Part shown: positions 2,330-53,870 of the stretch, piece after piece | Numbering within the stretch: position 1 is the first letter of the stretch | Layout: each line of letters starts with the position of its first letter | Virus record (IMG/VR): IMGVR_UViG_3300031998_000005 | Length of the DNA: 64,000 bases | Source of the DNA: a virus | Lineage: Duplodnaviria > Caudoviricetes | Direction: 5' to 3' (one strand) | Position numbers and translations under genes: made by a program | Notes under the pieces: model-generated | Told to the model about the DNA's origin: nothing | The model's database searches: none | What the model saw: the letters and a program-made list of their open reading frames with translations, nothing else

Positions 2330-3001
2330 TTATTCGGCTTCTACGTTAATTTCCTTATATCCGTCCTTGAACGAATAAGTTTCAAACTGCTTTTTGACTT
2401 CTGCCAAGAACTTATCCGCATTCGCCTGCGTCATCTGTTCTTCGGTCAATTTCATAACCACATCCAGGTCATCTTCGGGATGGCGACCATAGGTATAGTC
2501 AAAACTGCGACTAATACGCCCGTGAAGTGTATGTTCACGCCCAAAGTTGTAAAGCCAAATCTCGGCATAAGCGAAAATCTCGCAACCTTCGCTCCACCAC
2601 TGATTTTCAAAGTCGTAGAAGTCATCGGAACGGAGGTCGCATTCCACGCCTTCCTTCTCGCATTGTTCCTTGTAGGCATCTTCGCACTGCTCCTGCAAGT
2701 AATCGTAGTCCTTGTCAATCTTGTCATCTGCGTAGCCTTGACCGACAATGTTGTAGGAAGTGGTCATCCAAGTCTTTTTAACACCGCCATCGTTGTGGGA
2801 GATATATCCGCTGTAATCATCACGCTCAATATCTTCCACACCATCACCTAGTTCATACCAGGCATCACACATACCGCCACAAGACTGATTCACGTCATAG
2901 TTTTCAAGGATTTCGGTAGCCCCGTCCTTGATAAAACTATCGTAGAACTTCGCCCCTGCGGAACCGCTAGACTCGTGAACTCGGATTTTCATTTTAGACA
3001 T
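2330..3001 (-). CDS. Acidic protein with KIRVHE leader
   Basis: Starts MSKMKIRVHES; AAGGAG SD; D/E/Y-rich body. Confidence 0.7.
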   Translation of the reverse strand: MSKMKIRVHESSGSAGAKFYDSFIKDGATEILENYDVNQSCGGMCDAWYELGDGVEDIERDDYSGYISHNDGGVKKTWMTTSYNIVGQGYADDKIDKDYDYLQEQCEDAYKEQCEKEGVECDLRSDDFYDFENQWWSEGCEIFAYAEIWLYNFGREHTLHGRISRSFDYTYGRHPEDDLDVVMKLTEEQMTQANADKFLAEVKKQFETYSFKDGYKEINVEAE

Positions 3002-3045
3002 AGGACTACTCTCCTTAAATCTTTCTCAATGCTGAAATATACATT

Positions 3046-4026
3046 TTATTTTTCAGTGAACTTGGACAGGTCGGCAGAACAAATCTCGTAAGTGCCCAAG
3101 TTGTAGTGGACTTTATCGCCCGAAGGCTTGACAATGCCCAACTCGGCAAGTTTCTGCAACAGCCTGCCGTCCATACTAGAACTTGCAAAAAATTCATTAG
3201 TGTCTAACGAATACCCAGGCAAGCACACAGAAACATCCGTATAAATCTCGCCATCGTCACACTCGGCAATCAAGGCAATACCATTCGTCATAGCGTATTG
3301 TTCCAAGCGGACCGTGAGATTATTTTCTTCCCCATAGGCTTTATACGTGAAATACTCCGTCCGCTTGCCGATAGGCAACTTACTCTTGCGAGCCTCGGCT
3401 ACGCCTTCTTCAACCTTGTATTTGTTATACATTTCAATGGTCCACTGCTCGGCTTCTTCAACCGATGTGGTTTCCTTGATTTCACTACCATTAAAGTTTT
3501 CTGCAACATTGAACGTGAAAACACTTGCACTCAAACACACTTCCGCATCGGGAGAATACCAAGCGTCTACGACACCTGGAATGTCCGCAAGGTCGTTAAT
3601 GTCGGACAACGAGCCAAACAATTCCCAATCCTTGCCGTTGCTATCCGCAGCAATCTGCTGCAAGGCATCACGGATAGATTCAACATCCACAAAAGCCACA
3701 AGTGCAGGAGCGGACGGCAAAACCGCCTTCTTGTATTCCTCCTGCATAACCTTTTCAACTTCTTCCCTGCTCGGACGGTCCTTAAAGGCAACCATAAGGT
3801 AATTATCCTTTACGGTAGCCCTATCCACGTCAAGGGATATGTTTTCAATATCCCAAGCCACATCGGGGTCAAAATCCTCGGTGCCCTTGAATACCGCAAG
3901 TGCGTGTGCGGTATAACAAGACGGCAAGAAATCCCCAATTTCGTTCTTCAAGGACTGGGGAAGAAACAGGCTTTCGGCTTCCTGTTTCTTGCTCTCGTGC
4001 AAACGGATAGACAATTTCTTGGACAT
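3046..4026 (-). CDS. Leader-bearing protein with C-terminal DUF4313-like domain
   Basis: Likely start MSKKLSIRLHESKKQEAES at 4026; C-terminus (YAMTNGIALIA...EIYTDVSVCL...LGIVKPSG...GTYE) resembles DUF4313 from memory. Confidence 0.6.
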   Translation of the reverse strand: MSKKLSIRLHESKKQEAESLFLPQSLKNEIGDFLPSCYTAHALAVFKGTEDFDPDVAWDIENISLDVDRATVKDNYLMVAFKDRPSREEVEKVMQEEYKKAVLPSAPALVAFVDVESIRDALQQIAADSNGKDWELFGSLSDINDLADIPGVVDAWYSPDAEVCLSASVFTFNVAENFNGSEIKETTSVEEAEQWTIEMYNKYKVEEGVAEARKSKLPIGKRTEYFTYKAYGEENNLTVRLEQYAMTNGIALIAECDDGEIYTDVSVCLPGYSLDTNEFFASSSMDGRLLQKLAELGIVKPSGDKVHYNLGTYEICSADLSKFTEK

Positions 4027-4041
4027 TGTGATACACTCCAA

Positions 4042-4317
4042 TTACTTATATTTTTCCAACTGCTGAAAGACATAACTAAACGCATCGTTAATGCGTTCCT
4101 GCTTTCGGGCGAGATTTTCCGCAATTTCAGTAGCAGTGCCATACGCAGAATCGGCAGCACCATCTTGAATGTCTATAATACTCCCCCAAAGGGATTCTAT
4201 GGGAGAGCGACTACCGATGATAGCAGAAATGTCTTTAAGTTCATCCTGCAAATTTTCAAACTCGCCCTGCAAGGACTCGTTGCTTTCGTGCAAACGGATA
4301 GACAACTTTCTAGGCAT
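4042..4317 (-). CDS. Small helical acidic protein with SIRLHE leader
   Basis: MPRKLSIRLHESNES; directly downstream of the protease. Confidence 0.7.
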   Translation of the reverse strand: MPRKLSIRLHESNESLQGEFENLQDELKDISAIIGSRSPIESLWGSIIDIQDGAADSAYGTATEIAENLARKQERINDAFSYVFQQLEKYK

Positions 4318-4320
4318 ACC

Positions 4321-5358
4321 TTAACCTCCAAGGATGTAAGAAATCAGGCTGCCATCATTGGCTTCGTCCTTCTTGATAGCCTTGGCTTCCAAGACCTTGA
4401 ACGTCTGCGGTGCAGGCTGTTCACGCTCAATGCTTTCGTAAGTAGCACCCGCCTTGCGACGCTCCTTAACGTAATCTTCATTAAGCCCGTTCTTGTTGGC
4501 GAATTTCAACTCACGGATAGTTTCTTCGGACATCTTGATTTCTTCCTGCAAGTCTTCCACGAACTTGACGATAGACTGCTTGATGTCCTCGGTCACCTCG
4601 GTAAAGTCTTCAAACTTATACGTGTCGTTAGAGCCGTCATCGCAGTTGGACATTTCACAGCCGTTCTTGTCAAGGCTTTCAACGATGTAGGTGCTTCCGT
4701 CAAGTTCAACGGGTGCCCCAAGTTCGTTAGCCAAGGAAAGCAGGCTTTCAGCAACACGTTCGTTCACGGATTCTTCAAGGGCTTCCTTCTTCTTGGATTC
4801 CGAAATAACCTTGGGCTGTGCGTCAAGGAAACCAGGGTCTTGAACAAAGTCAAAGCGTTCAAGTTTGTAAGTCTTGGGGTCAAGAATGTCGTTGCCATCT
4901 TCGTCCTTGCCTTCGTAGTCGCCATCGGCACGGGAACTGACATACATCGTAGTTCCTGCACGGAGAATGGTGTAAAGGGTCTTACCCATATCCGTATTGT
5001 AGATGACCGATTCAGCAATGCCCGTCTTCCAATCAATGTTGCGGGTAATATGGGAGAACTTGCCCTCGGCAATATCTTCGTCAGTGATTTCGGCTTCGTG
5101 TCCGATACGACCGAACATCTGTCCGTTCTTGAGTTTGCGTTGCACATCTTCGTCTTGACCCGCAACTTCCCAAAGTTCTTCGGTGTAAAGACGATGATTA
5201 CGGCTTACCTTGCCAGGGCAGAAATGCTGACCCTTGACAATGGCGAGAATAGTGCCGCCGCTCTTGGCAACCTCGGATTGAGCGGACTCGTCCACACGGG
5301 CAATATCGTCCACGAACTCGCACTTAAACGGGATATAATCTTCTGCAATTTTCTGCAT
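4321..5358 (-). CDS. Prohead core protease, T4 gp21-like, with acidic C-terminal extension
   Basis: SRNHRLY, MFGRIGH, FSHIT, GKTLYTILRAG, VSSRADG and FDFVQDPGF match the gp21 motif order. Confidence 0.9.
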   Translation of the reverse strand: MQKIAEDYIPFKCEFVDDIARVDESAQSEVAKSGGTILAIVKGQHFCPGKVSRNHRLYTEELWEVAGQDEDVQRKLKNGQMFGRIGHEAEITDEDIAEGKFSHITRNIDWKTGIAESVIYNTDMGKTLYTILRAGTTMYVSSRADGDYEGKDEDGNDILDPKTYKLERFDFVQDPGFLDAQPKVISESKKKEALEESVNERVAESLLSLANELGAPVELDGSTYIVESLDKNGCEMSNCDDGSNDTYKFEDFTEVTEDIKQSIVKFVEDLQEEIKMSEETIRELKFANKNGLNEDYVKERRKAGATYESIEREQPAPQTFKVLEAKAIKKDEANDGSLISYILGG

Positions 5359-5407
5359 AGTAAACTAACCTTCCTTATCTACAATAGGTGTAAATGCTAC
5401 CACAAGT

Positions 5408-5704
5408 TTATTCCTTGTAATCCATAATCTGCCTAATAAGGGCATCTGCCCATTCATCCATCGGGATTTCATCAAAAGACGAACCCCATACATCGGAGTA
5501 GAACTCATTACTAGGTAAATCATTCATCACGTTGTTAATAAGTTTACCAAACGGACCGCTATTAAAAGAACCTAGACCTAGCATCAGTGTCCACCATCCC
5601 TCACGTATTTTTTCAACGGCACGGATAAGGTCTTCTTTAGATTTTGGTTTTTCAAAATCTTCGTTCTGCTTGGTTTCGTGAACCTTGATAGTCATTCTAC
5701 CCAT
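5408..5704 (-). CDS. Small protein with TIKVHE leader, paralog of 7340-7645
   Basis: MGRMTIKVHET; KEDLIRAVEKIREG...SFDEIPMDEWADAL. Confidence 0.7.
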   Translation of the reverse strand: MGRMTIKVHETKQNEDFEKPKSKEDLIRAVEKIREGWWTLMLGLGSFNSGPFGKLINNVMNDLPSNEFYSDVWGSSFDEIPMDEWADALIRQIMDYKE

Positions 5705-5708
5705 AAGG

Positions 5709-7328: not shown

Positions 7329-7339
7329 ACAAGCGACCC

Positions 7340-7645
7340 CTAGCGGTTATGAACCTTGATTTTAAGATGACTTTCAGTCTTGCCATTACCCAGGCTTTCA
7401 AGATACTCAATCATAGCATCGCAAAATTCTGCAATCCGCAGTTCATCATAGGAACGTGGAGCGAACGAATCGCCATACAACGCATCTATAGCAGGGACAT
7501 CTTCGCAGGCTTGGTTGAACCAACCACCATACTCGTTCTCACGCCCAGGAATTACAACGGCATCGGAGTTTATAAGGGTTTCGTTGAACCCATCACGCAT
7601 TTTCTTAAAGCCGTCTATAAGTTCTTGTTTCGTAATGTTAGACAT
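7340..7645 (-). CDS. Small protein ending in a KIKVH motif, paralog of 5408-5704
   Basis: KQELIDGFKKMRDG...SYDELRIAEFCDAM; ends ESHLKIKVHNR; GGAG SD. Confidence 0.7.
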   Translation of the reverse strand: MSNITKQELIDGFKKMRDGFNETLINSDAVVIPGRENEYGGWFNQACEDVPAIDALYGDSFAPRSYDELRIAEFCDAMIEYLESLGNGKTESHLKIKVHNR

Positions 7646-7756
7646 CGGTTGTCTCCGTAAGTAATAAGTTCATCAGTAAAAATAATAACAAAACCAACCA
7701 AGCGGTATGCACCCTACATCAAAATAAGGCATATCCTACGTGATATAACAAGATAC

Positions 7757-8533
7757 CTACGGCTTTTCCACCTCAACATAAGCGTCTGCGGGAACGATGA
7801 CCCTTGTTCCATCGGTCGCCACGTGTTCTTTCCATTCGGGAGTGCCGTTGAAATCCATAGACGCAAGCGGAATCCCGTTAGGATTATACAAGTCCACGAC
7901 AATGCTACGGAGCGGTGCCATCTTCCAATCTGCGAACTCGGACACAAACTGCAAGAACACCTTGACGTTCCAAGAGTAGGAAAACAGGTTGCCCTGTCGG
8001 AAAGACACGAGTTCTTCTGTTCCCAAGTCCTGTATGACAGTCAAGTTCAAGCCTGCCGTATTATACCCGCCCTCGGACGGGGTGCTTCGGTCATCGTAAG
8101 CAAATCGTAAATTTATCGGGACATTATGGATATTTTGATACTCGGCTGCGAACGCCTCGGCAAAATCTTCAATCAGTTCTGCCTTGTTAGACACCAAGAC
8201 ACAGCCCATACCGAAAGACGCAGAAACTGTCTTTTTGAACTTCAACTTGTCATCGGGGGTCTTTCCATCGGCTATACGGATAGAGCGTCTAACAAGATTC
8301 TCCAAAGAATCCCTAGTCCAAAACAGGTAGGAATACGGGTCTTCTCGGACCGTTTCCCTGTCCGTCTGCGACTTGCGTTCCATTTTCTTATTGGCTATGT
8401 CTTGGTCAAGCAGGCGTTGGGGACCCTCGGCATCCGCACCATAAGCGACTTTCATAGACTTATCAAAGCCCTGCCTAGTAAAGAAATTCCGCATTTGAGC
8501 GAAATAAGCCTTGACAGCAATAGACTGCATCAT
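7757..8533 (-). CDS. Putative tail completion/structural protein
   Basis: 258 aa next to spike gene; assignment from context only. Confidence 0.35.
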   Translation of the reverse strand: MMQSIAVKAYFAQMRNFFTRQGFDKSMKVAYGADAEGPQRLLDQDIANKKMERKSQTDRETVREDPYSYLFWTRDSLENLVRRSIRIADGKTPDDKLKFKKTVSASFGMGCVLVSNKAELIEDFAEAFAAEYQNIHNVPINLRFAYDDRSTPSEGGYNTAGLNLTVIQDLGTEELVSFRQGNLFSYSWNVKVFLQFVSEFADWKMAPLRSIVVDLYNPNGIPLASMDFNGTPEWKEHVATDGTRVIVPADAYVEVEKP

Positions 8534-8548
8534 AAATCAAACACCCCA

Positions 8549-9079
8549 CTAGAACAGGACTTTCTGCTGTGCCGGGGTGTGAAGACCCGTAAGCGGACAA
8601 GCCGTCATACAATTCAAGCCCATACTACTACCATCGCCAATCGTTATCATATCCGCTGCGATAGAGAGAATACCCTTGGTTTCCACATTAGTTCCCGCCA
8701 AGGAATGCTCCACACGGAAACCATCATCGCCACCCTGGAACTCAAACTGCGTTCCGTCCTTGCGACCCTTAAAGATATTCTTGCCCAATCGGATATAAAA
8801 TTCATCTGTGGTGTTAGTCCCGTTCAATTCCTGGGCTAGACCCAAGACATAGGCTTCGCACAGGTTTCGGACTTCCACGATTACTTCGTCATCCACTTCG
8901 TAGGAATAAGAAAGGGGTAGCAGGGGTTTTGCCCAAAAGTCAAGGTGGACTTCTTCCTTGGCGTTCATCGTGCATTGGACTTTATAGAAATCCCCTATCT
9001 CCAATATCTTGCAACGGAGAGTATAAGTTCTAGGCGTGAGAGCCTTGCGGAGTGCAGCAGTGCCAAGGTCAAAATTCAT
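8549..9079 (-). CDS. Putative baseplate central spike protein
   Basis: OB-like N-terminus, beta-rich C-terminus ending CMTACPLTGLH (His/Cys apex like phage spikes). Confidence 0.55.
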   Translation of the reverse strand: MNFDLGTAALRKALTPRTYTLRCKILEIGDFYKVQCTMNAKEEVHLDFWAKPLLPLSYSYEVDDEVIVEVRNLCEAYVLGLAQELNGTNTTDEFYIRLGKNIFKGRKDGTQFEFQGGDDGFRVEHSLAGTNVETKGILSIAADMITIGDGSSMGLNCMTACPLTGLHTPAQQKVLF

Positions 9080-9121
9080 ACCCTAAATATAAGTAAATTT
9101 TGTTATATTAGTAAATACCCT

Positions 9122-9772: not shown

Positions 9773-9774
9773 CA

Positions 9775-12874: not shown

Positions 12875-12880
12875 AGTAAA

Positions 12881-38012: not shown

Positions 38013-38797
38013 ACAATACCTAACTTTTGGTCAATGATTTTACGGGTAAGCCCCTCAAGGGTTTCCACTTTCCTGTTTCCCAAGTATGCCCCGATTTCAA
38101 CGCTGAAATCTCGGCAGGGAATATACTCCCACCCATCACGCTTCAAATGGACTAGGGCTAACTCCCCGACCCGCAAATTGGTCATACGCTCTATAAGCAA
38201 CTTATAAGTGCTTAATTGTGCAGAATAGTGGATGTAATTGCAATCGGGCAAACCTTCAAGCGGTCCGATACATTGTTGGAACGGGTTTTCCTTTTTGATT
38301 TCCTTGTTCGTCTTCCAATCCAGGATAGCAATACAATCTTCCCCCCTATCCCAACAAAGGTAGTCAATCGTTCCACACAAAGCCCATTCGGGCTTATAAA
38401 CAATGAACTCATTACGAATAGGCACAAACCGTCGGCACAGACGATTGTAGGCTTCCAATCCGTTCTTCCTAACACGCTCGTAATCGCCAACAGGTTCTAC
38501 GGGCTGATAGTGCTTACGTTTCCACAAGTTCTCCATATAACTATGGACTTGCGTTCCCATAGACGCAGCCTCGTTCTTGTTCTTATCCCACATAGCCTTG
38601 ACATCGGCTACCGCCATATTGTGCTTGACGGCATACTTTTCGGCTATCTTATCCCAATCTTGTTCTTCACAGAACTCGTGGACGAACTTGGTGACGGACG
38701 TGTATTTTGTTCCAAGGGAATCCGTGTAAGTATGAGTTTCTTCTTCAAAGAAAATATCACGGAATTTCCACAATTCTATGTCCAAATCACAGACCAT
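38009..38797 (-). CDS. PD-(D/E)XK exonuclease
   Basis: Likely start ATG 38797; SVT, GTQVH, CGTID, ILDWKT, YSAQLSTY. Confidence 0.85.
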   Translation of the reverse strand: MVCDLDIELWKFRDIFFEEETHTYTDSLGTKYTSVTKFVHEFCEEQDWDKIAEKYAVKHNMAVADVKAMWDKNKNEAASMGTQVHSYMENLWKRKHYQPVEPVGDYERVRKNGLEAYNRLCRRFVPIRNEFIVYKPEWALCGTIDYLCWDRGEDCIAILDWKTNKEIKKENPFQQCIGPLEGLPDCNYIHYSAQLSTYKLLIERMTNLRVGELALVHLKRDGWEYIPCRDFSVEIGAYLGNRKVETLEGLTRKIIDQKLGIV

Positions 38798-39857
38798 AAA
38801 CAGATGCCTTTTCGCAGAACACGTTATGGTCCCAATACTGAATAGCGTTGGCAAACCATTCCACCTGTTCCATAGAAATAGGTGTAAAATTGTGATAGTC
38901 CGCAGCCAGGTCAAACCCGTTCTTCTTGGCGAACGCCCTGCCGTGGATATGACCATACAGCACAATGTTATCGGGGTATTCGGGGGTCATCGTTCCTTCA
39001 TCGGGTTCGTGAACCACGTAGTAAGTCCGTCCGTTCTGCTTGAACTGCTCCGCAGACGAAAGCACAATATCCCTGCCCATATAGGAAAGTTCCTTTTCAA
39101 CCTCGGACATAATCTCTCGGTCGTAGTTCCCAAGGACAAAATACAGGGTCTTGAAATTAAGGCAGGACACAATATCCCGCATAGTGGAAATATCCCCGAA
39201 ATCCCCTGCGTGGTAAACATCATCGTTCATCGTGACGGACTTGTTCCAATTAGAAATCATCGTCAAGTCCATAAAGTTCGTGTCCACGAAAGGTCTGCGG
39301 GAAAGTTCAAGAGTTCTCTGCTGTGAGAAATGAGTATCGGAGATAAAGAACTTTGTGGTCGCCCTGTTCAACCTGGACACCACAGCAGTCAGCATTTCTT
39401 CCAAGTCAGTCCAATATGGGATTTTCTCCTGTTCAAGTCGGACTTTAAGGTAATCGTTCTTTTCTGCGTCATCGGGGAAACCGCAGAACACGCCAGGCTT
39501 GTTATACCAATCCCCGAACTCAATGTTTGTCGTGAAAGCGGGGAAACCCCTGTCTATGTGTCTATCCACCCAAAAGACGATGGCAGATGCCTTGTGCATA
39601 GCGATGGTTTCCCACTCGGTCTGCACCCGCAAGGATTCCTTGCCATACTTATCACGCAGTTCTTGAAACCTATCGTTTGTCGGGGTAATCACGTTCCCGT
39701 CAAAGCCAAGGCGTTCCAAGATGTCAAACGCCTCGTTTCGCCAATCGTTAGAGTAATCTTCACGGGGACACGGTCCTGCCAAGAAGATGGAATTATTCAA
39801 CCCACAGGCTAGTTGTTCCTGCGGGGCAAGTTCGGGATTTACTTTAATTATCTTCAT
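38787..39857 (-). CDS. Fusion of nucleoside 2-deoxyribosyltransferase-like and calcineurin-like metallophosphoesterase domains
   Basis: SIFLAGP, WR, QTEWE, TTNIEFG; then SDTHF, GDFG, GNYD, HEP, GHIH. Confidence 0.82.
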   Translation of the reverse strand: MKIIKVNPELAPQEQLACGLNNSIFLAGPCPREDYSNDWRNEAFDILERLGFDGNVITPTNDRFQELRDKYGKESLRVQTEWETIAMHKASAIVFWVDRHIDRGFPAFTTNIEFGDWYNKPGVFCGFPDDAEKNDYLKVRLEQEKIPYWTDLEEMLTAVVSRLNRATTKFFISDTHFSQQRTLELSRRPFVDTNFMDLTMISNWNKSVTMNDDVYHAGDFGDISTMRDIVSCLNFKTLYFVLGNYDREIMSEVEKELSYMGRDIVLSSAEQFKQNGRTYYVVHEPDEGTMTPEYPDNIVLYGHIHGRAFAKKNGFDLAADYHNFTPISMEQVEWFANAIQYWDHNVFCEKASVYGL

Positions 39858-44931: not shown

Positions 44932-44958
44932 AAAACACCCGCCCTTGCGGACGGGTGC
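44932..44958 (-). terminator. Intrinsic terminator
   Basis: CACCCG...CGGGTG stem plus T-run, ends the cargo block. Confidence 0.7.
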
Positions 44959-44979
44959 TTACTATGCAATGGAAATCTG

Positions 44980-46755
44980 TTAGGACATCTTGTAGACATC
45001 TACTTCGTAGCACGGTCCACCATATTCGTCAAAGTCGTTCCTGCTACGGAAATCGGCTTCTTCACTGCGGTCATCCAAGTAATACTGCTTGCCGTATTCT
45101 TCTTCAAACTTGGCAAGGATTTCCTGTTCGTGTTCGTCAAGGTCTTCGCCATATTCATTTCCGAACGTGTGGGCTTCCCACAGCCATTTCGGAACGATAA
45201 TGGTGTCAATGAGTTCAAGATGAACTTCGGACTGCTTGGATTCCGTTTTCTTGCGGGATTCGGTCAAGTTTTCCTGCCCTGCGATGAACTTGGCGGTTTC
45301 GGCTGCGGACAGGTCGCCATCGGTGTAGTTCTGCTGAATGACATCGGCATACTTGTCGGCAAGACGTTTGGCACCGTTCGTTCCACAAGCCCAAATGACA
45401 TCAAGTTCGGAAATGATGTCGGACGTGTAGTTCTTCAAGTCGTGGGCTTCGGACTTTTTAGGGTCATCGCCAACTTTCTTCAAAGCGTCAAGAACTTCAC
45501 CAACGGACTTAAATCTTACAGGGTGTTCGTCCTGGATGTCGCCTCTATACATACTCCCACCGAAAACTTCAATAGATTCAAGATATTCGCCTGTGCGGTC
45601 TTCATTAAGCGAAAAATAATACTTAATGCCATCTTTGGTAGCAGTGAAACGTGTCCGATACGGATAAATCATACCATTACGGACATTGGACGAAGGCTCA
45701 AACCCAAGGGCTTTAAGACCATCAATAAGAGTCCAATAGTTATCATAGGCGGTTTCATCGTCCTCGTTCGCTTCGGACTTCTTGGATTCCTTTGGCTTGT
45801 AGGGTCCGTCAACGTATTTGGTTCCAATGAAATCGTAGAAAAGTGCGTCCTGTATGGGCTGCTTAACGGTTTCTTCTCCGTAGTTCCAACCCAACAGGTC
45901 TATGATACCCTCGGTTACGTTGTAGCAGGCGTTCCACTGATAGGCTTCGTCCTCATCGTCATAGCAGTCGCCGTGTTCATTATCGGGGTCAACGATATGG
46001 ACGGTAGTCACGAACTCGCCGTCGTCAAATTCAAACCACCCATTGAATAAATCCAAGAGGGCTTCCATATTTTCATTGACAAATTCTTCGCCAAAGTTTG
46101 ACTTTTCATTTTCGGGCACGTGTTCTACGATACTCTTGAATGCTTTGCGGATAGCGTCTTCTTCGGTGGTTGCACTTTCGGATTTCTTGCTTTCGCTCTT
46201 GCTATACTGCTTCATTCTCTGCATTTGGTCCTCTGCTTGTTTCTTTGTCGGGAACGACGCAAGAACTCGGTTATCTTCGTGGCTACGGATTACCCACGGA
46301 GCGTCTTCGCCCTTGCTGTTCTTATGTCCTTTTTCATAACCTAACTTTTCGTCAGTGTCCTTGGACTCGTTTTCGTGTTCTGCCGTCCATCGGGCATCAC
46401 AATCGCTACAAAAGCCCCCGTGTGCGTCAAGTTCATAACTAGGGGTGACTCGTCCACATCTGTGGCAATAGTAGTAATCTTCGGAGTCATCCCCATCCAT
46501 ATAGAACTCGGATTTCTTTTCAATACCAATATCCTTCAGCGGGATTTCAGTTTCGGTAGTGTCCTTGATTCCGTATAACGTGGCTGTGGTCGCTCCGTGT
46601 CGGAGAGCCATTTCCAATGTTCCACGGGCATCTACGATACCACTGGTATTCTTGAAATAGGGTTCACCATCAATGATGTAGTGAACCTTAAAGTAGTCAT
46701 ACTGCGAAGGGTCAAACCTACTTTCGTGAACTTTGATAGTAAAAGGCATATCCAT
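44980..46755 (-). CDS. Leader-bearing polyprotein of about 7 modules
   Basis: MDMPFTIKVHES; linkers EKKSE, ENESK, ESKKSES, ESKKSEA, KKSEA, ESRKKTESKQSE. Confidence 0.7.
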   Translation of the reverse strand: MDMPFTIKVHESRFDPSQYDYFKVHYIIDGEPYFKNTSGIVDARGTLEMALRHGATTATLYGIKDTTETEIPLKDIGIEKKSEFYMDGDDSEDYYYCHRCGRVTPSYELDAHGGFCSDCDARWTAEHENESKDTDEKLGYEKGHKNSKGEDAPWVIRSHEDNRVLASFPTKKQAEDQMQRMKQYSKSESKKSESATTEEDAIRKAFKSIVEHVPENEKSNFGEEFVNENMEALLDLFNGWFEFDDGEFVTTVHIVDPDNEHGDCYDDEDEAYQWNACYNVTEGIIDLLGWNYGEETVKQPIQDALFYDFIGTKYVDGPYKPKESKKSEANEDDETAYDNYWTLIDGLKALGFEPSSNVRNGMIYPYRTRFTATKDGIKYYFSLNEDRTGEYLESIEVFGGSMYRGDIQDEHPVRFKSVGEVLDALKKVGDDPKKSEAHDLKNYTSDIISELDVIWACGTNGAKRLADKYADVIQQNYTDGDLSAAETAKFIAGQENLTESRKKTESKQSEVHLELIDTIIVPKWLWEAHTFGNEYGEDLDEHEQEILAKFEEEYGKQYYLDDRSEEADFRSRNDFDEYGGPCYEVDVYKMS

Positions 46756-46764
46756 TCTCCGTTG

Positions 46765-47781
46765 TTAAAATCCGCAATCGCCCAAGGCACAGCCTACATC
46801 GTCAAGCGACCCTGCGAGTATAATTTCATCTTCGGCATATTTGGGAACTTCCATATACACGTGCCATTTCTTTGCCCAGGGTTCAATGTCCGCAGGCTTG
46901 CAACGACTCCACTTGCTATTGATAGTAGCGTAGTGGAACGCAGTTATATCAAAGAAACTATCGGATAGTGTCTTGTCTTCGGAACTATCAAGGAAATCTA
47001 CCAATTCATCTATCGTGTTCACGTAGATGTTCGTGTAGTCCTTGTCGGGGATAACGATGACATTTTCATTGTTCTTGGCTGCGTTTACCGCCCATTCAGT
47101 AGCGTCCGCAGGAACGTCAAAGGTGAAGCACAGGTTACGATGGATAGGCATTAAATCTTCGTTTCGCATAGTCTTTTTACCTTTTGCAACTTCTCTTGCG
47201 AGTTCCATAGATGAAGCGGACGGTCCTACGCCCATACCCCACCCATTGCAGTCCGACCACTTTTGCAGTTCGCTAACGTCATCGCAGTAAATGTCAAATT
47301 CATCGGACGGCTTGCGTTCGGGGCCATAGACAGGGTAATACCCGTGTATGACGCACTTGGCATTTCCCGCATCGGGGTAAAGGTCGGGGTCTGCTTCCCC
47401 GAAGCCCATCACACGGAAAGTAAACGCACCCCTGCGGAGGCAACGGATAGTCGCACGAACAGGAACGCACACTCCGTTCGGGAGTTCCAAGGTGCTACCA
47501 TATCGCAGGCAGTCAAATTCCACGTCGGGGTGGACTACCTGTAAGGATTCATACCTACCCGCATTTACGGCATTGAACCTAGACAACTTGTGTATGTGGC
47601 GTTTGCCCGCAAAGGATTTAATCCACCCGTTGAGTTCCTTGGTTCTTTTCCTGCGGGTCAGCGGATTATTCCAGGTGTGCTTCGCACGAGCGGACTGAAT
47701 GTAGCCCGTGTGCGAAGAATGGTCATCCTTGAACCTGTCAAGGAGCGACTTTTTATGCAGGAAATATCCGTTGTTAGGCAT
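46765..47781 (-). CDS. Hypothetical protein with basic N-terminus and acidic remainder
   Basis: 338 aa; basic part ends at RYES. Confidence 0.6.
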   Translation of the reverse strand: MPNNGYFLHKKSLLDRFKDDHSSHTGYIQSARAKHTWNNPLTRRKRTKELNGWIKSFAGKRHIHKLSRFNAVNAGRYESLQVVHPDVEFDCLRYGSTLELPNGVCVPVRATIRCLRRGAFTFRVMGFGEADPDLYPDAGNAKCVIHGYYPVYGPERKPSDEFDIYCDDVSELQKWSDCNGWGMGVGPSASSMELAREVAKGKKTMRNEDLMPIHRNLCFTFDVPADATEWAVNAAKNNENVIVIPDKDYTNIYVNTIDELVDFLDSSEDKTLSDSFFDITAFHYATINSKWSRCKPADIEPWAKKWHVYMEVPKYAEDEIILAGSLDDVGCALGDCGF

Positions 47782-47790
47782 TGTGAACCT

Positions 47791-48369
47791 TTATGTTTTG
47801 TTGGACTTGATTTCCTCGTCCACGATAGAATCAACTATTCGTAGGATATGGGATTTCGCCTGTTCAAAGTTTTCAGTCTTTTCTATCTCGTCACGGATTT
47901 TATTACGCAACTTGATACGGGACGGACCACGGGTGTCGTTAAGATTATATTGCTTGGCGAGGCTCTTGGCTGCTATACCCATCTGTGTAATGTCATCGGC
48001 AAGAGCACGATAAGACACGTGTTCCTTAACGAAATCTTCAATGTCGTTATAGGAATTAAACGCTTCCTTTTTCTTGGATTCATCAGCGTCATCGTTTTCA
48101 ATGGAAACAAGTTCGCCATCGTCATCCCACTCCAAGCCGTCTTCTTCAAGAGCGTCATCGGTCGGGATAAGTTCGTCCTGCTTCATCCACCCGTAGGCTT
48201 TTTCAACCATATCTTCGGACAAACCACGGGCGAGAAATTCACCGATGGTCGCCCAGTCAATGTAGCCCTGTTCAACAAGGCAATACAGGCGGTTCATATA
48301 CGGACGAGCGGAGTCTTCGTTCTTCTTGAGAGATTCAATCTTCTTCTGCATAGAGCACTGATGTTTCAT
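47791..48369 (-). CDS. Protein with CSMQKK leader and internal ESKKKEA linker
   Basis: MKHQCSMQKKIESLKKNED; GGAGG SD. Confidence 0.7.
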   Translation of the reverse strand: MKHQCSMQKKIESLKKNEDSARPYMNRLYCLVEQGYIDWATIGEFLARGLSEDMVEKAYGWMKQDELIPTDDALEEDGLEWDDDGELVSIENDDADESKKKEAFNSYNDIEDFVKEHVSYRALADDITQMGIAAKSLAKQYNLNDTRGPSRIKLRNKIRDEIEKTENFEQAKSHILRIVDSIVDEEIKSNKT

Positions 48370-48381
48370 AGTGTGTCCTCC

Positions 48382-48852
48382 TTAATCTGCTTGGAGAGCA
48401 TTGAAAGCGTTTTGTGCAAGGTCTATGGCTCGTTGAATTGCCTTCATACAACTATTCACATCCTTGGAGTAGGTGTGAGTAAGCGGGATGTAGTTCACAG
48501 GACGCTTGTAGTCGGCTGTTCTTGCGTCTACACTGATGGTCTGTGTTTTTTCGGCATATTCATTGAGTTCATAGTTTACAACGATACAACTACCGATTGC
48601 CAATTCAAATTTCTTAATGTAGATACGACGGTTCGGAGTGTCGTAGGTGTAAGGCATATTCAAGCGGACAAGGGCTTCAATGAAAACCTTGTCGCTCGGA
48701 CCTAATGTCTTGAAATGCGTTTCAATTTCTTCAATGTGACTGCTCACTTTGAGATTCGCTGCATCCCTTTCAAGGTCATCGGCAGTGTAGAGGGCTTCGG
48801 ACTTTTTCTTCTTAAGCGATTCAATCTTTTTCTGCATAGAGCATTTAGCCAT
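48382..48852 (-). CDS. Protein with CSMQKK leader
   Basis: MAKCSMQKKIESLKKKKSEA; GGAGG SD. Confidence 0.7.
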   Translation of the reverse strand: MAKCSMQKKIESLKKKKSEALYTADDLERDAANLKVSSHIEEIETHFKTLGPSDKVFIEALVRLNMPYTYDTPNRRIYIKKFELAIGSCIVVNYELNEYAEKTQTISVDARTADYKRPVNYIPLTHTYSKDVNSCMKAIQRAIDLAQNAFNALQAD

Positions 48853-48864
48853 AACAAGCCCTCC

Positions 48865-49851
48865 TTAAATGTCGGTCATACCCTTCTTGGCGATTTCAAT
48901 GCCTGTCTTTCCCTGTTCGCCAGGAACTTCCGTCTGTGGCATCACATCACGGGTCGGGGCATTCTTGATAGGCTTGTTGGACTTGTTCATAAGACCCGAA
49001 TTTGCAAGAATGGCATTCTTGATGTCGTTCTTGTCAATTTCGCTGTTGTAGTATTCACGGTAAGCATTCACCATACCTTCCTTGATATTCTCGTCAAGGT
49101 AGTCTTTGAGTTTCGGGGCACCGCTTTCAGCCATCCAATCAAAGATGTTGTAACCCGACTCAACTGTGCTGGAAGGCATTTCGCCATCGTTGGCAACGGC
49201 AATAGCACCTTGGAAATCTCGGAGCATATCTGCGGGGTCTTGGGCGGTGTTGCCTGCCGAGTTCTTGAACACAAGGCAAGAAATCTTGCAGTTCGGGTTG
49301 AGCAGGAAAATCTGCGACCATCTGTGATGCCCGTCTACAATGTAATATGTGCCGTTGTAGTCATATACGACCACGGGTGCCTTGATGGTGACAGGACCAT
49401 TTTCAAGAATCTGCTTGATTTGGGTCGGGTTCTGTCCACTGCACTGATAACCCAAGGATTTCTTCACGTCAATTTCGTTCTGCGTGGGGTGCAGGTCCTT
49501 TGCAGAAATATCCATAACTTCGGTGTTCATCTTGGTAGCCTTTTCGCCATCACCGAAACCCATTTCAAGTAAGTCAAGTTGTTCATCGGTAAGTCCGTCA
49601 AGAGCATCTACAAGATTACCCATATCGGACTTGGACTTCAAGTCCTTAATTTCCTTGTCAAAATCGGCATCGTCATCTTCGTAGATACCTTCAAGGGCTT
49701 CGTTGTAGCCTTTCTTGTAGGTAAGGAACGCAGCACGGGACGAGAACGACTCTTGGGTCTTCATCGGGGCATACTTTCTGCCGTCCTTGTTCCCCATAGA
49801 GTAGTAGGATTCTTTCTTCTTGTTTTCTTTGATTTTGATTGTCAAACCCAT
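48865..49851 (-). CDS. ParB/Srx-like domain protein with leader variant
   Basis: Likely start MGLTIKIKENKKKES at 49851; LHPTQNEI, IVDGHHRW. Confidence 0.8.
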   Translation of the reverse strand: MGLTIKIKENKKKESYYSMGNKDGRKYAPMKTQESFSSRAAFLTYKKGYNEALEGIYEDDDADFDKEIKDLKSKSDMGNLVDALDGLTDEQLDLLEMGFGDGEKATKMNTEVMDISAKDLHPTQNEIDVKKSLGYQCSGQNPTQIKQILENGPVTIKAPVVVYDYNGTYYIVDGHHRWSQIFLLNPNCKISCLVFKNSAGNTAQDPADMLRDFQGAIAVANDGEMPSSTVESGYNIFDWMAESGAPKLKDYLDENIKEGMVNAYREYYNSEIDKNDIKNAILANSGLMNKSNKPIKNAPTRDVMPQTEVPGEQGKTGIEIAKKGMTDI

Positions 49852-49869
49852 AGTGGTAATCCTCACTGG

Positions 49870-50175
49870 TTAATAAACACTCGTAATGTTTTCAAGGGCG
49901 GTTTCAACATCGTTAGCCATCTTGACCGAAGCACCTTCGGGGAGAGATTGCATAACAAAGTCTTTCCAATCTTCTACGTTAGTGATACCCCTAAACTGAC
50001 CTTCTTCAAGATAATCGCTAGTTTCCTGCATAGCGATAGACAATTCTTCCAAGTTAAGTCCAAGGTCGGAGGGAACTCCCAATCCTTTTTCCTTGCGGTA
50101 TCTATAGTCGTTTAAGATATAGTTAAGGGTCTTGATGTTGGATTCCAACATAAATTTGGCTTCTTGAAAATCCAT
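49870..50175 (-). CDS. Small acidic protein
   Basis: MDFQEAKFMLES; AAGGA SD. Confidence 0.65.
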   Translation of the reverse strand: MDFQEAKFMLESNIKTLNYILNDYRYRKEKGLGVPSDLGLNLEELSIAMQETSDYLEEGQFRGITNVEDWKDFVMQSLPEGASVKMANDVETALENITSVY

Positions 50176-50235
50176 ACTAATCGTTCCTTTACAAAGGTGG
50201 ATTGGTTATACATATCCTAAAATAACAATTTGACC

Positions 50236-50820
50236 CTAGACGTGCAACACCAAGTCCAGGTAAATGAGCGATTCTTCGTTCTCTTTCTTGGCGTTCGGGT
50301 TTCTCAAAGTCCTAATGTTCTTCACGAAATAGGACAAATCTTCATCCCCGTAGTGGACGAGCAACTTGGAATGTAATACAATATCGCCTGGGCAGTAGTT
50401 CCTGTGTCCATTGGTATTCTTTAAGGTATAAGCCGTATTTTCTTCGTCAAGGAACATTTCTGTTCCACGGATTACGGGCTGTTCCTGCGGGTCAAGGAAC
50501 GCTATGCGGGCGATAAAGTCGGGTTCTTCGTTATACCTGTATTCGTGGTCTTTGTCGTTGTAAACCGACCCTGTGCGGTCTTCTTCGTTGTAATCGCCCA
50601 TAAAGGGCATACCGCTGTAAATGGATTGGTCGCCACGGTCCTCAATCGGGTAGTCGGGCGTTCCTTCGGAAGCCACAGGCAGATACACTTCGGCATTAAG
50701 TCCGATGATAGAAATAGCGTGTTTCAAGGCGACATACACGTGTAGGTCGGCTATGTTGGTAATCACGTTTTGGGCGTGTTTACCTTTCAAGTATTCCATA
50801 TCATCTAAAGATTGGGGCAT
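50236..50820 (-). CDS. Putative head-completion/structural protein
   Basis: 194 aa; HAISIIGLNAEVYLP weakly gp14-like. Confidence 0.35.
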   Translation of the reverse strand: MPQSLDDMEYLKGKHAQNVITNIADLHVYVALKHAISIIGLNAEVYLPVASEGTPDYPIEDRGDQSIYSGMPFMGDYNEEDRTGSVYNDKDHEYRYNEEPDFIARIAFLDPQEQPVIRGTEMFLDEENTAYTLKNTNGHRNYCPGDIVLHSKLLVHYGDEDLSYFVKNIRTLRNPNAKKENEESLIYLDLVLHV

Positions 50821-51044
50821 AATTCCTCTTTGCGGATAATCTTACCTTTCCAATTCGGTCCCATCTTGTGAGCCTGTTCGGTGTCCGAACAATAACTGCA
50901 TACTGCTCGTCCACCGATGAACCTGTATGTCTTACGCTCGTGGCAAATGCAACAGGTTTCCTTTGTCCCCGCAGTATGTCTTTTGCGGTGGAGCGGGGGT
51001 AGTCCGTCAATCGTTATCGGCTTTGGGTATTCTTCGTATATCAA
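50805..51044 (-). CDS. Small Zn-finger protein
   Basis: CCIC...CSYC. Confidence 0.55.
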   Translation of the reverse strand: MIYEEYPKPITIDGLPPLHRKRHTAGTKETCCICHERKTYRFIGGRAVCSYCSDTEQAHKMGPNWKGKIIRKEELCPNL

Positions 51045-51047
51045 GAA

Positions 51048-51365
51048 TTAGCCCTCGCAATACCGATTGAAGATTTCTTCTAACTTGTGGAACACGTCCA
51101 AATCGCAGTGCCAATCAAAGGTAGAGTCGGCATCCCACGTGCGAATTTTGAAACTGCCCCCGTTGTAAGCCAACTCATAGGAACACACAAATTCTCCGAC
51201 ACCCTTTACGTTGATGACAAGTTGTTGCACCCCATATTTGGTCGGTTCGCTGTATGCCTGCATCTTGAAATCACTGCCACCAAGAGCCTGCTTGAACTCG
51301 GACATCATAGCGTTCAAGTCCACATCGCCCTTCTTTTCGTGAACACGGATTTTCATATTAGTCAT
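51048..51365 (-). CDS. Protein with KIRVHE leader
   Basis: MTNMKIRVHEKK; GGAG SD. Confidence 0.7.
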   Translation of the reverse strand: MTNMKIRVHEKKGDVDLNAMMSEFKQALGGSDFKMQAYSEPTKYGVQQLVINVKGVGEFVCSYELAYNGGSFKIRTWDADSTFDWHCDLDVFHKLEEIFNRYCEG

Positions 51366-51394
51366 AGTAAATCTCCAAGTGGTGTCCTATCCGA

Positions 51395-51730
51395 TTAGTA
51401 GGTAATGTGGATAAGGTTTTGGAGTTTCTTCAACAGGTAATCCCTGTATTCGGGAGTATGCCCCGTTTCTTCATTCAGCCAACCATCCTGCTTGGTCTTG
51501 AAGAAATAGGTGTCCCATTCATCCGTGCCTGCGTGGAAACTGATGGGCGTGACCTTGCTTTCTTCCAACTTGAAGTAATAGGTGCAGTCATCGCTTTTCC
51601 CATCTTCATCAAGCATATAGTATGCGAAAATTCCTGGATAGGCAGGGTTCATTTCAACGATACCATCCTTTCCGTAGAAAAGGGTGGTTTCGCTTACAGA
51701 CTCGTGGAGTTTGATTTTCATTTTAGACAT
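51395..51730 (-). CDS. Protein with KIKLHE leader
   Basis: MSKMKIKLHES at 51730; AGGAG SD. Confidence 0.7.
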   Translation of the reverse strand: MSKMKIKLHESVSETTLFYGKDGIVEMNPAYPGIFAYYMLDEDGKSDDCTYYFKLEESKVTPISFHAGTDEWDTYFFKTKQDGWLNEETGHTPEYRDYLLKKLQNLIHITY

Positions 51731-51740
51731 AGTGTTGCTC

Positions 51741-52397
51741 CTAGTAAATTTCAACTGTCATATCGTAGCGGTCAAACGGGGCTTCCTTTGTTCCCGCAGC
51801 GAAACACTTGATTCTGCCGAACAATTCATAGCCTTCGGGGGTGCTGGCTGAAAAGTCATAGGTCTTGGTATTTCCGTTATATCCCCCCGTGCGGTTGTCT
51901 GCCCACATTTCAAATTTGACTTTCGGGAAAGCGTCTTTGAGAGCATCACGGATTTTCCAAACAGCACTCCAATCGGTATCGTGGAAGAAACCCTTGGAAA
52001 GCGGATTCACAATACGTTGCATTTCTGTGCGATACTCGTTTCGGGTGTGCTTGTCCGCATCAGCATCCCACTTTTCGTGAACCTTGATTTTCAATTTACT
52101 TTCCATTTTCTTCTCTCCGATGGCATACAGGCTGTAAATCCTAGACCCTGCGGTGTAGAACTTTTTGCCCCATACACGAACACCCGAACCAACGTAGGTA
52201 GTGCTGTCATTCAAGACCACTACCCCCTGTCCTGTTTGGTCATCGGTGTCCAAAGCACGGATAGGCTTGTTGAACGTATATGCGTGTTGCCAAGCGGTCA
52301 TAGGACCGAACGGCTTTTTAGACCACAGCAGTTCGCAGGGGTTCTTCGGGTTTACCCGATAGGTAATGCCGTATTTTGGAACGTATAGTGTCTGCAT
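51741..52397 (-). CDS. Two-module protein with internal KIKVHE motif
   Basis: Internal MESKLKIKVHEK at about residue 98. Confidence 0.65.
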   Translation of the reverse strand: MQTLYVPKYGITYRVNPKNPCELLWSKKPFGPMTAWQHAYTFNKPIRALDTDDQTGQGVVVLNDSTTYVGSGVRVWGKKFYTAGSRIYSLYAIGEKKMESKLKIKVHEKWDADADKHTRNEYRTEMQRIVNPLSKGFFHDTDWSAVWKIRDALKDAFPKVKFEMWADNRTGGYNGNTKTYDFSASTPEGYELFGRIKCFAAGTKEAPFDRYDMTVEIY

Positions 52398-52399
52398 AA

Positions 52400-53170
52400 C
52401 TAATGGGTGTCAATCCACTTGCGGATGTCATCAAAGGTTTCAAGCCCTACGTTTTGAGTGCCGATGGTCACGTCATAGTAGTTGGGGTCAAACAACTTTT
52501 CAGTAGTCGCCCATTCTTCCTGCGTAGGCATATCTACACCCGCAGTGTAATCCTGGGTGTCCTTTTGATACGGAATACCCAAGCAGATTTCAGTGAACAT
52601 ATTGTCCTTGCTAATCTTGCCATTTTTAATAGATGACCTAATGGCTTCTTGCCATTCGTCAATTTGGCTGTCCACCGAAACATTACTTTTCTTTCCACCG
52701 ATTTCCATAAGATTGCCGTCTGCGTCATAGATTTCGGGGTAAGCCTTGCCACCGTCGTAGTAGCAGACGTAATCGGGGTTGCTATCCACGATACTTTCAA
52801 CCTTGTATGCGAGTTCGGTCAAGAGGTCAAGGATTTCGTCATCGCTCGCAGATTCGGATTTCTTGCTTTCAAACTCGTAGTTGAACAACAGGTCTTCCAC
52901 TTCTTTCGGGGCGACAATTTTTTCAATCTTGTTGTTCGGAAACCACTCACGGACAATCTTTTCAATCTTTTCGGGGGTCATCTTGTTAATTTCATCGCCC
53001 TCGCATTCCACGTAGATGGTGTCGCCAAGGACGGCTGTATTAACAAACGGTCCCCAACCATCACGGAGATAGTATTCTTCATCGGAAGCGGTGTCTGCGT
53101 CATCGCACTTGATAGCCCATACTTGCATAGAGCCGTGGGATTCGTGAACCTTGATTTTCATTTTGGACAT
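52400..53170 (-). CDS. Two-module protein with KIKVHE leader
   Basis: MSKMKIKVHES; internal FESKKSES. Confidence 0.7.
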   Translation of the reverse strand: MSKMKIKVHESHGSMQVWAIKCDDADTASDEEYYLRDGWGPFVNTAVLGDTIYVECEGDEINKMTPEKIEKIVREWFPNNKIEKIVAPKEVEDLLFNYEFESKKSESASDDEILDLLTELAYKVESIVDSNPDYVCYYDGGKAYPEIYDADGNLMEIGGKKSNVSVDSQIDEWQEAIRSSIKNGKISKDNMFTEICLGIPYQKDTQDYTAGVDMPTQEEWATTEKLFDPNYYDVTIGTQNVGLETFDDIRKWIDTH

Positions 53171-53190
53171 AGTGTTATCCCCTGTAAAAA

Positions 53191-53568
53191 TTAGTAGATG
53201 GCTGCAATCTTACCATCTTCAATGAGAATGCCGTGTTCATCGGAATCGGCTTGGTTAGCATCAGTATCGTTGTAATACACTTCAAGGTCTCCCGCACGGA
53301 TTATTTCGGGGATGCTCTCAATTTCCTTGGTAATGGCTTCCAAAGAGAAGTCAATATCCCAATCGTTCCAATCACGGTCGCCACAATGATACCCATTGCG
53401 GATGTCATAACCGCCCGAAGGGGGGTTCTTGCTATCAAACGGGTCGTTCTTGATGTTGTTGTTGAGTTCATCCCAAGCGTTCTTGAGTTCCCCATAAGTG
53501 ATTTTCTGCACACCGATAAAGTCGGTGTCAGTGTGGGATTCGTGCAGGGTAATCTTCATATTAGACAT
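53191..53568 (-). CDS. Acidic protein with KITLHE leader
   Basis: MSNMKITLHES at 53568; GGAG SD. Confidence 0.7.
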   Translation of the reverse strand: MSNMKITLHESHTDTDFIGVQKITYGELKNAWDELNNNIKNDPFDSKNPPSGGYDIRNGYHCGDRDWNDWDIDFSLEAITKEIESIPEIIRAGDLEVYYNDTDANQADSDEHGILIEDGKIAAIY

Positions 53569-53582
53569 ACAGGTATCTCCCA

Positions 53583-53870
53583 TTAGCGGTAGTATGTAAG
53601 ACTATCCACATTGTTTCTTACAGCAATATCTTCAGCCGTTCCCTTAAAGTAGTGGACGGCATCATACAGGTTCGTTTCTTGGTTGTCAAGTATCATACCA
53701 TCCATATCAAAAAGGGTCGTTACAAACTCCCTACTACCATTTTCGGGGGATTGGATGATTACAACTATCCTGTCGTGTCCAAGAGCGTAGTCCAAGGAAT
53801 GTTCCACAAGGGTTTCCAGGGAATCGGGGATTTTGTTGGATTCGTGAACCTTGATTTTCATATTGGACAT
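53583..53870 (-). CDS. Protein with KIKVHE leader
   Basis: MSNMKIKVHES at 53870; GAGG SD. Confidence 0.7.
   Translation of the reverse strand: MSNMKIKVHESNKIPDSLETLVEHSLDYALGHDRIVVIIQSPENGSREFVTTLFDMDGMILDNQETNLYDAVHYFKGTAEDIAVRNNVDSLTYYR

Follow-up and report, generated by a model that had tools for sequence, protein, structure and literature searches.

An IKVHE leader shared by unrelated proteins of an uncultured jumbo phage: a probable cleavable head-targeting tag of the T4 kind

The IKVHE leader, a short peptide of about 9–13 residues, heads 20 open reading frames (ORFs) in the genome of an uncultured tailed phage (Duplodnaviria; Caudoviricetes; IMG/VR virus record IMGVR_UViG_3300031998_000005). 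Twelve of these ORFs lie in the 64,000-nucleotide stretch analysed here (the window), which is the reverse strand of positions 90073–154072 in a single 215,686-bp virus contig with a completeness of 99% (CheckV), and the remaining eight lie outside it. We consider it probable that the leader is a cleavable head-targeting tag of the same kind as the capsid targeting sequences (CTS) of phage T4, and the best reading of its users is a family of uncultured 130–225-kb phages with T4-type heads. Behind this view stand the motif itself and its place at protein termini, its conservation in spellings that differ by clade, its replacement by internal joints or by a second leader in front of the same bodies, the Glu that marks the junction, and a protease and a capsid protein of the T4 type encoded by the same phage. 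A literature search found no paper describing the IKVHE tag or its phage family.

An earlier note on this DNA had listed ten leaders in the window and one variant, at 49851. All of them are the starts of minus-strand ORFs, the ten canonical ones at 3001, 4026, 4317, 5704, 46755, 51365, 51730, 53170, 53568 and 53870. The count of ten was one short, as an eleventh canonical copy, MESKLKIKVHE at 52106, had been overlooked; it lies in frame within a 218-aa ORF (51741–52397). The genome total of 20 includes two weaker variants, namely 49851 and MSKLTIKSRSVTE at genome position 195534. A degenerate DNA pattern that encodes I-[KR]-[VL]-H-E has 10 matches in the window, on the minus strand only; in 100 dinucleotide-preserving shuffles the matches averaged 0.37 and never exceeded 2. 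The profile scan of the genome and its relatives that the note had proposed was carried out with a position-specific scoring matrix (PSSM) derived from 14 canonical copies and run on all six frames of the 215,686-bp genome; it yielded leader ORFs in the genome and in the relatives too. Ranks 1–18 of the genome scan are N-terminal leaders, each on the coding strand and a few residues from an ATG, and rank 19, the sole high match away from an N-terminus, is a copy at a C-terminus. Random internal control windows produced no PSSM match in about 1,470 ORFs of six genomes. A Shine-Dalgarno-like motif stands 5–16 nt upstream of 18 of the 20 leader ATGs, and every one of the 14 canonical copies ends in [V/L]-H-E (Val in nine, Leu in five).

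The proteins behind the leader had been described as otherwise dissimilar and mostly acidic, and both descriptions hold. Within the genome, BLASTP finds no similarity between any two bodies at E<1e-3, and 16 of 19 bodies have a pI of 5.0 or less, as do 27% of all ORFs of at least 80 aa; the genome median is 6.8. No shared C-terminal motif was found on the leader proteins, and none of the bodies scored above a family cut-off in Pfam or PHROGs. The arrangement in two blocks was also borne out: leader genes D, C, B and A surround the prohead protease, and the second block spans 46755–53870. Beyond the window there is a third block at genome 195–204 kb, together with scattered copies.

The phage encodes one S77 protease and a gp23-family major capsid protein, that is, a T4-type head module. 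The protease (4321–5358, minus strand), of the T4 gp21 type, matches phrog_207 at 1.6e-21, and several of its homologues at 31–74% identity have a precomputed PF03420 match; no second S77 paralogue was detected in the genome at E≤1, and a profile search of the PDB with the protease alignment returned nothing at E≤0.01. The capsid protein, at genome 154095–155741, lies 22 bases past the left edge of the window and scores 38.8 bits against Pfam Gp23 (cut-off 24.4); it replaced ORF 904–2310, our first guess for the capsid protein. In T4, the internal proteins carry N-terminal CTS of 10–19 residues, targeting is governed by the N-terminal residues and processing by residues 8 and 10 of one 10-residue peptide, and gp21 cuts after Glu in L/I-x-E (PMC9026906). 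The diverged proteases of phiKZ and SPN3US likewise cut after Glu (PMC5694885, PMC9026906), and both T4 gp21 and SPN3US gp245 autocleave their own C-terminal parts (PMC5694885). The leader end [V/L]-H-E fits the gp21 rule, Val being a conservative departure from L/I-x-E. An E-S pair is invariant just past the catalytic domain in 13 protease homologues (48–100% identity), and in the phage's own protease this pair, directly after the domain, reads ISE/SKKKE (here and below, a slash in an unhyphenated peptide sequence marks the junction). In the same region, a 258-aa protein (7757–8533, minus strand; start MMQSIAVKAYF) matches no PHROG or Pfam family and is 81% identical in the relative G001; each of the five representatives examined from clades other than G0 has a look-alike N-terminus no more than about 3 kb upstream of its protease. 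This protein is a candidate for the putative core or scaffold partner of the tag.

The system had been predicted to be much larger than that of T4, and the 20 tagged ORFs together with polyproteins do exceed the T4 set; what has to be added is that the leader belongs to a wider grammar, together with ESKKxE joints, leaders of a second class and a copy at a C-terminus. Linkers of the form E-S-K-K-x-E number 22 on the coding strand and one on the other strand, and three leaders merge directly into SKKxE (HE-SKKQE, RE-SKKNE and KE-NKKKE). The same bodies occur behind a leader in one phage and behind a joint in another. The body of leader protein A (2330–3001) follows MSKMKIRVHE here and is found in G001 within a longer ORF after ...NESKKSE, and that of leader protein I (53191–53568) is found in G001 inside a longer ORF after an ESRKKRSE-type joint. 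The body of leader protein K (48865–49851) has a short leader here, and in G001 it is preceded by a leader, two extra modules and joints. Among database homologues, body A is headed by the IKVHE (class-1) leader alone, by the class-1 leader plus xKKxE, or by the second leader plus FKKNE. This second (class-2) leader reads M-x(2-7)-C-S-M-Q-K-K-I-E-S, with the peptide consensus C-S-M-Q/N-K-K-I/K-E-S-L/V and a conserved Cys. It heads five ORFs of the genome, two of them in the window, and also occurs within modular proteins. Its sites are at window positions 48843 and 48357 (N-terminal) and 1482 and 1245 (internal in ORF 904–2310) and, outside the window, at genome positions 160543, 187331 and 202085 and at 5944 on the minus strand.

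The homologues of body K give the junction in detail. They comprise 68 cluster representatives at 61% identity or more, 64 of which have a recognisable body start; the residue before the body is Glu in 62 of the 64, the first residue of the body is Ser in 51 and Ala in 13, and the context upstream varies. A leader heads 55 of the homologues, with one or more unrelated modules between leader and body in 49 of the 55, and a few leaderless homologues begin exactly at the predicted mature end. More distant K homologues, on many other phage contigs (P0142–P0193), have short Glu-ended starts of other kinds, such as MIIRVYE, MKIHVNE, MKINMIKKNE and MKLLDLLNE, a pattern which hints that the K-body family may be a common head cargo with lineage-specific tags.

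K is also the only body with a recognisable fold, predicted to be that of ParB and sulfiredoxin. In its AF2 model (pLDDT 87) residues 1–24 are disordered, and the top Foldseek matches in the PDB are all ParB, Noc or sulfiredoxin (best E 2.6e-3, prob 0.99, TM 0.2–0.5); the match to Pfam ParBc_2 has 22 bits, just below the cut-off of 23.6, and the motifs DGHHRW and PTQNEI are invariant among homologues. The matches of K in a search of cultured phages were limited to Microcystis phage Mel-JY01 and two uncultured records, none of them annotated. The model of protein A (AF2 pLDDT 85) is disordered over residues 1–12, so that the leader is disordered in both models; fold searches with A gave no more than a best E of 0.12 in the PDB (Foldseek), a best E of 0.06 in BFVD and a best Z of 7.1 in VIA-align, which is in the noise range. 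An anti-defence or host-takeover role of the bodies, as proposed earlier, is speculation.

Two copies of the motif are in unusual places. The 218-aa ORF (51741–52397, minus strand) consists of a 105-aa N-domain, the internal leader MESKLKIKVHE/K, whose Met at 52106 has its own Shine-Dalgarno motif, GGAGAG, and a body. N-domain and leader are 79% identical over 123 residues in G001 and the bodies behind them are unrelated, which places the swap point at the leader end. The other copy closes a 101-aa protein (7340–7645, minus strand), which ends in ...KTE/SHLKIKVHNR-stop; the relative L001 keeps this end as KSE/SHLKIKVHNR. Here the I-K-V-H stretch lies beyond the cut-type site and at the opposite end of the protein, which suggests that stretch and cut site are separable and that the stretch is the part to be discarded; moreover, such a copy is not explicable as a translation-start effect. 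A 238-aa ORF at genome 162822–163538, directly upstream of a leader gene, ends in ...NKNLKIK-stop (163524) and may hold another C-terminal tag or a remnant of one.

Leaders of this type are found throughout a group of related phages. IMG/VR contains a clade of 213–215-kb contigs with proteases 71–93% identical to that of the present phage, and further clades down to 50%. The PSSM was applied to five relative records, four of them whole and one (G007) almost whole, and the N-terminal leader ORFs above threshold were 15 in G001, 12 in G004, at least six in G006 and at least four in G007 (37% complete), compared with 16 in the phage itself (G000). A family-wide regular expression for the leader was too noisy, and the PSSM counts were relied on. 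The spelling differs from clade to clade: MQIKVKE and MNIKVHE at 70% protease identity, MIIKVHE at 63%, MAMxIKVxE at about 54% and, in a 135-kb clade at 50% (G008), M-x-I-K-L-I-K-K-x-x-E-A in place of IKVHE. What stays constant across clades is a short I-K-V/L near the start, followed by Glu before Ser or Ala. The exact leader DNA pattern matched 16 IMG/VR loci, about half of them by chance (the word MKIKVHE in unrelated contexts) and the others in the same phage clade. No relatives among cultured phages emerged from a nucleotide search with two window stretches or from a protein search with ORF 904–2310; the closest cultured-phage proteases, those of Escherichia coli phage IME392 and Ralstonia phage RP13, are at most 39% identical, and the annotation tables of both phages list the head genes in the usual order. 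Leader ORFs turn over faster than the remaining genome: a G001 homologue exists for 9 of the 20 leader ORFs and for 178 of the 264 other ORFs, and identity to G001 is 87% for the protease, 88% for the portal-like protein of 522 aa and 91% for the capsid protein.

The individual genes of the window, all on the minus strand unless stated otherwise, show how leaders, joints and bodies are combined. Near the protease, leader protein A (2330–3001, 223 aa) begins with MSKMKIRVHE/S and leader protein B (3046–4026, 326 aa) with MSKKLSIRLHE/SKKQE/A, a leader that merges into the joint motif; the G001 homologue of B begins with MALRINIHESKKTEA, and B has a weak DUF4313 match of 25.7 bits, below the cut-off of 27. 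Leader protein C (4042–4317, 91 aa, MPRKLSIRLHE/S), with a weak coiled-coil match and no family above cut-off, and leader protein D (5408–5704, 98 aa, MGRMTIKVHE/T), directly upstream of the protease, are both without a G001 homologue. A plus-strand ORF of 709 aa (3298–5427) overlaps the protease and leader genes B and C on the opposite strand. We do not count it as a gene, since it is the minus-strand genes that have a family match, Shine-Dalgarno motifs and conserved homologues; the open frame most probably arises from the Glu/Asp-rich coding of that strand. The modular protein at 904–2310 (468 aa) contains two ESKKKE joints and two internal CSMQKKKES motifs, and is without a canonical leader.

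In the second block, leader protein E (44980–46755, 591 aa) is a leader-headed polyprotein, in which MDMPFTIKVHE/S is followed by three ESK[K/Q]SE joints; its G001 counterpart begins MAKITE/RFDPSQ, and its modules sit at two places in G001. Two class-2 leader proteins follow, one of 192 aa (47791–48369, MKHQCSMQKKIES...) with one ESKKKE joint and one of 156 aa (48382–48852, MAKCSMQKKIES...), and then leader protein K (48865–49851, 328 aa) with its variant leader MGLTIKIKE-NKKKE/S. Leader proteins F (51048–51365, 105 aa, MTNMKIRVHE/K) and G (51395–51730, 111 aa, MSKMKIKLHE/S) precede the 218-aa ORF. Leader protein H (52400–53170, 256 aa, MSKMKIKVHE/S) has one internal ESKKSE joint, and its G001 homologue covers the first module only and is likewise leader-headed. 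The block ends with leader proteins I (53191–53568, 125 aa, MSNMKITLHE/S) and J (53583–53870, 95 aa, MSNMKIKVHE/S).

Elsewhere in the window, a 615-aa ORF (35338–37185, minus strand) matches many PHROG tail-fibre families over residues ~42–95, and a 356-aa ORF (38787–39857, minus strand) matches phrog_547 phosphoesterase at 5.9e-31. On the plus strand, we take the 313-aa ORF at 56236–57177 (start MRVLLTADWHL) to have the look of an SbcD/Mre11-type phosphoesterase, and the 438-aa ORF at 60988–62304 (start ...ITKIKLHNFQCH) is presumably, from its N-terminal strand, an ATPase of the SMC/SbcC/RecF type. The G001 counterpart of the latter gave a weak false leader score in the matrix scan.

A mechanism of the following kind would account for the leader as a head-targeting tag. 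The alternating hydrophobic and basic stretch, (K)-I-K/R-V/L-(H), would dock the protein onto the core of the assembling prohead, and the single gp21-type (S77) prohead protease would cut after the terminal Glu, before Ser or Ala. The cut would free the body inside the head, and the tag would be discarded. The same Glu/Ser or Glu/Ala junction, as ESKKxE, would join the modules of polyproteins, so that a body could enter the head by itself or strung together with others, and the second leader class, CSMQKK[IK]ES, would do the same job interchangeably. In its fullest form, which we put forward with some doubt as a tentative possibility, this would amount to a combinatorial cargo-loading grammar with two N-terminal tags, a C-terminal version and a universal Glu joint, in which a module is loaded alone or in a polyprotein and is released by one protease.

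Docking, cleavage, retention in the head and delivery to the host are steps that we infer from gene sequences, and several findings weigh against the targeting reading. The protease scores 21 bits against Pfam Peptidase_S77, below the cut-off of 27. The internal joints have no hydrophobic residue at P3, and the protease rule in this phage is therefore not simply the T4 rule. The G001 orthologue of leader protein F (66% identity) reads MSSMKIKVHN and has lost the Glu. Modular proteins of 1265, 489 and 468 aa have joints and no leader, which means that the leader is not the sole way in, if jointed proteins are loaded at all. We take the T4 tag to be spelled MKTYQEFIAE, with which the consensus M-S-K-M-K-I-K-V-H-E shares, by eye, only the terminal Glu and the hydrophobic P3; on this comparison the two tags have no sequence similarity, and the IKVHE tag is, to judge from its spelling, an analogue and not a homologue of the T4 CTS. 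The address-tag reading in the earlier note is supported in part, by the T4-type head module, the Glu end and a family-wide tag with swapped bodies. Finally, the bodies are acidic in contrast to the basic, DNA-bound internal proteins of T4, and some of them could therefore be parts of the core or scaffold that are expelled, not injected.

The acidity of the bodies leads to an alternative that we regard as unlikely and nevertheless give real weight, in which the tag is real and cut, but most tagged proteins are core or scaffold components like T4 gp22, gp67 and gp68 and are degraded or expelled before DNA entry. In T4 the genes for gp67, gp68 and gp22 lie beside that for the protease, where the present phage has four tagged genes; the low pI of 16 of the 19 bodies, the coiled-coil match of C and the failure of any body to match a known effector family point the same way. 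On the other hand, an essential scaffold should persist, and even G001, with its closely similar protease and capsid protein, does not conserve the tagged proteins next to the protease; K has an enzyme-like ParB/sulfiredoxin fold, and many tagged genes are distant from the head module, at genome 195–204 kb. It is also conceivable, but quite unlikely in our judgement, that the leader is a processing remnant without address function, left when a module turned into a stand-alone gene that kept its start and cut site, with loading achieved otherwise or not at all. This would suit the interchange of leader and joint before the same bodies, the three leaders that merge into SKKxE and the jointed proteins that have no leader. 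A remnant, however, would have no need to retain I-K-V/L in clades whose proteases are as little as 50% identical; IKV never occurs on internal joints, and the C-terminal copy keeps IKVH past the cut site. As for a single short peptide carrying both functions, the targeting and processing determinants of T4 also lie within one 10-residue peptide (PMC9026906).

A further question is whether selection acts on the peptide or on the nucleic acid, either as an A-rich enhancer of translation start or as a homology cassette for gene shuffling, the peptide itself being functionless. The codons of the leader raise this question, and they too count against the targeting reading. They are nearly fixed as AAA-ATC-AAR/CGN-GTT-CAC-GAA (14 canonical sites, e.g., window 2972–2986 and 53141–53155), with CAC for His in 14 of 14, ATC for Ile in 12 of 14 and GTT for Val in 9 of 9; the Lys before Ile (position −1) is AAA in 9 of 10, against the preference of the capsid and sheath-like genes, which use AAG for 93% of Lys; and all 13 pattern matches in relatives G001–G003 read CACGAA. 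Part of the identity among leaders is accordingly due to recent copying or to constraint on the start region, in keeping with exact runs of 20–26 nt common to neighbouring leaders and with body swaps exactly at the leader end. Nevertheless, the longest exact run shared by two leader regions has a median of 8 nt, the DNA upstream of the leaders shows no conservation, and K/R and V/L exchanges cost two or three bases per codon and yet keep the residue class. The amino-acid pattern persists in distant clades and in the C-terminal copy, to which neither copying nor start constraint applies; a further copy lies inside an ORF, and the last residue of the tag is always the one behind which the protease family cuts. 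We therefore hold a purely nucleic-acid role to be very unlikely. Least probable of all, and one we would hardly credit, is that the tag is recognised by some other enzyme or route, such as a modification like that of ribosomally synthesised and post-translationally modified peptides (RiPPs), secretion, or sorting to another part of the virion or to a cell compartment. The conserved Cys of the class-2 leader would be in line with it, but the radical-SAM domain (PF04055) has no match in this 99%-complete genome, as compared with matches in 14 of 14 control genomes; the leader, read from its sequence, has no hydrophobic stretch of the Sec/Tat kind, the bodies start polar or acidic, and the Glu end, the protease neighbourhood and the equivalence with joints all indicate the head protease.

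Taken as a head-targeting tag, the IKVHE leader resembles the T4 CTS of IPI, IPII, IPIII and Alt, processed by gp21 (PMC9026906, PMC3012670), in being a short N-terminal peptide common to unrelated proteins, in its Glu end and hydrophobic P3, in a phage whose protease is of the gp21 type and whose capsid protein is of the gp23 type, and in the position of tagged genes partly beside the head genes and partly elsewhere. As in the ip loci of T-even phages (PMC3012670, PMC4437046), the bodies turn over fast and the tag stays. The differences are nevertheless considerable. About 20 ORFs are tagged here, whereas T4 tags Alt and three internal proteins, and the bodies are acidic where those of T4 are basic. 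The tag is also linked to polyproteins with ESKKxE joints, a second leader class can take its place, and single copies of it lie at a C-terminus and within an ORF. The propeptides of phiKZ, 201phi2-1 and SPN3US, cut at S/A-x-E or A-x-E (PMC5694885, PMC9026906), are similar in belonging to jumbo phages with many candidate substrates and a diverged gp21 homologue, and in cutting after Glu with few other determinants, C-terminal autocleavage of the protease and multiple sites per substrate. However, those propeptides are mostly long (>100 residues) and do not share one tag, unlike the nearly identical peptide of about 10 residues on 20 proteins here, and the 8 to 19 processed proteins of those phages were identified by mass spectrometry, compared with sequence-based candidates in the present phage. 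The leaders are not long, protein-specific S/A-x-E propeptides, being about 10 residues in length, shared, and with Val or Leu at P3; the 218-aa ORF, with its 105-aa N-domain before the leader, is the sole case resembling a long propeptide.

Polyvalent proteins (Iyer et al., 2017; PMC5512222) offer a third comparison, as multi-module proteins encoded near virion genes for which packaging, and delivery together with the DNA, is predicted, with ParB-like domains among their modules and solo proteins, and with a proposed proteolytic release of modules. Processing of polyvalent proteins is ascribed mainly to protease domains within the proteins themselves (PMC5512222), whereas here the modules have a fixed six-residue joint, a terminal tag matches the head protease, and most modules are without a recognisable domain. 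Distinctive of the present case are the IKVHE spelling, the equivalence of the tag with the ESKKxE joint, its interchange with the CSMQKK leader and the C-terminal copy.

If the tag works in this way, it would be a sequence-readable marker for the head-internal proteome of a family of uncultured jumbo phages from gut and rumen, and dozens of orphan genes would become candidates for action in the first seconds of infection. It would also be a second, independent example of "address then clip" in another spelling, whose comparison with T4 would show what such an address needs, namely an alternating I-K-V strand and a Glu, and it could possibly serve as a portable tag for packaging foreign proteins in large phage heads, as the T4 CTS does. 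The equivalence of leader and joint suggests that the cargo set evolves by the shuffling of modules at cut sites. Should the bodies be retained in the head and then reach the host cell, this one genome would, with its 20 tagged ORFs and its jointed polyproteins, deliver several dozen different polypeptides, an injected arsenal far larger and faster-evolving than any shown for a phage.

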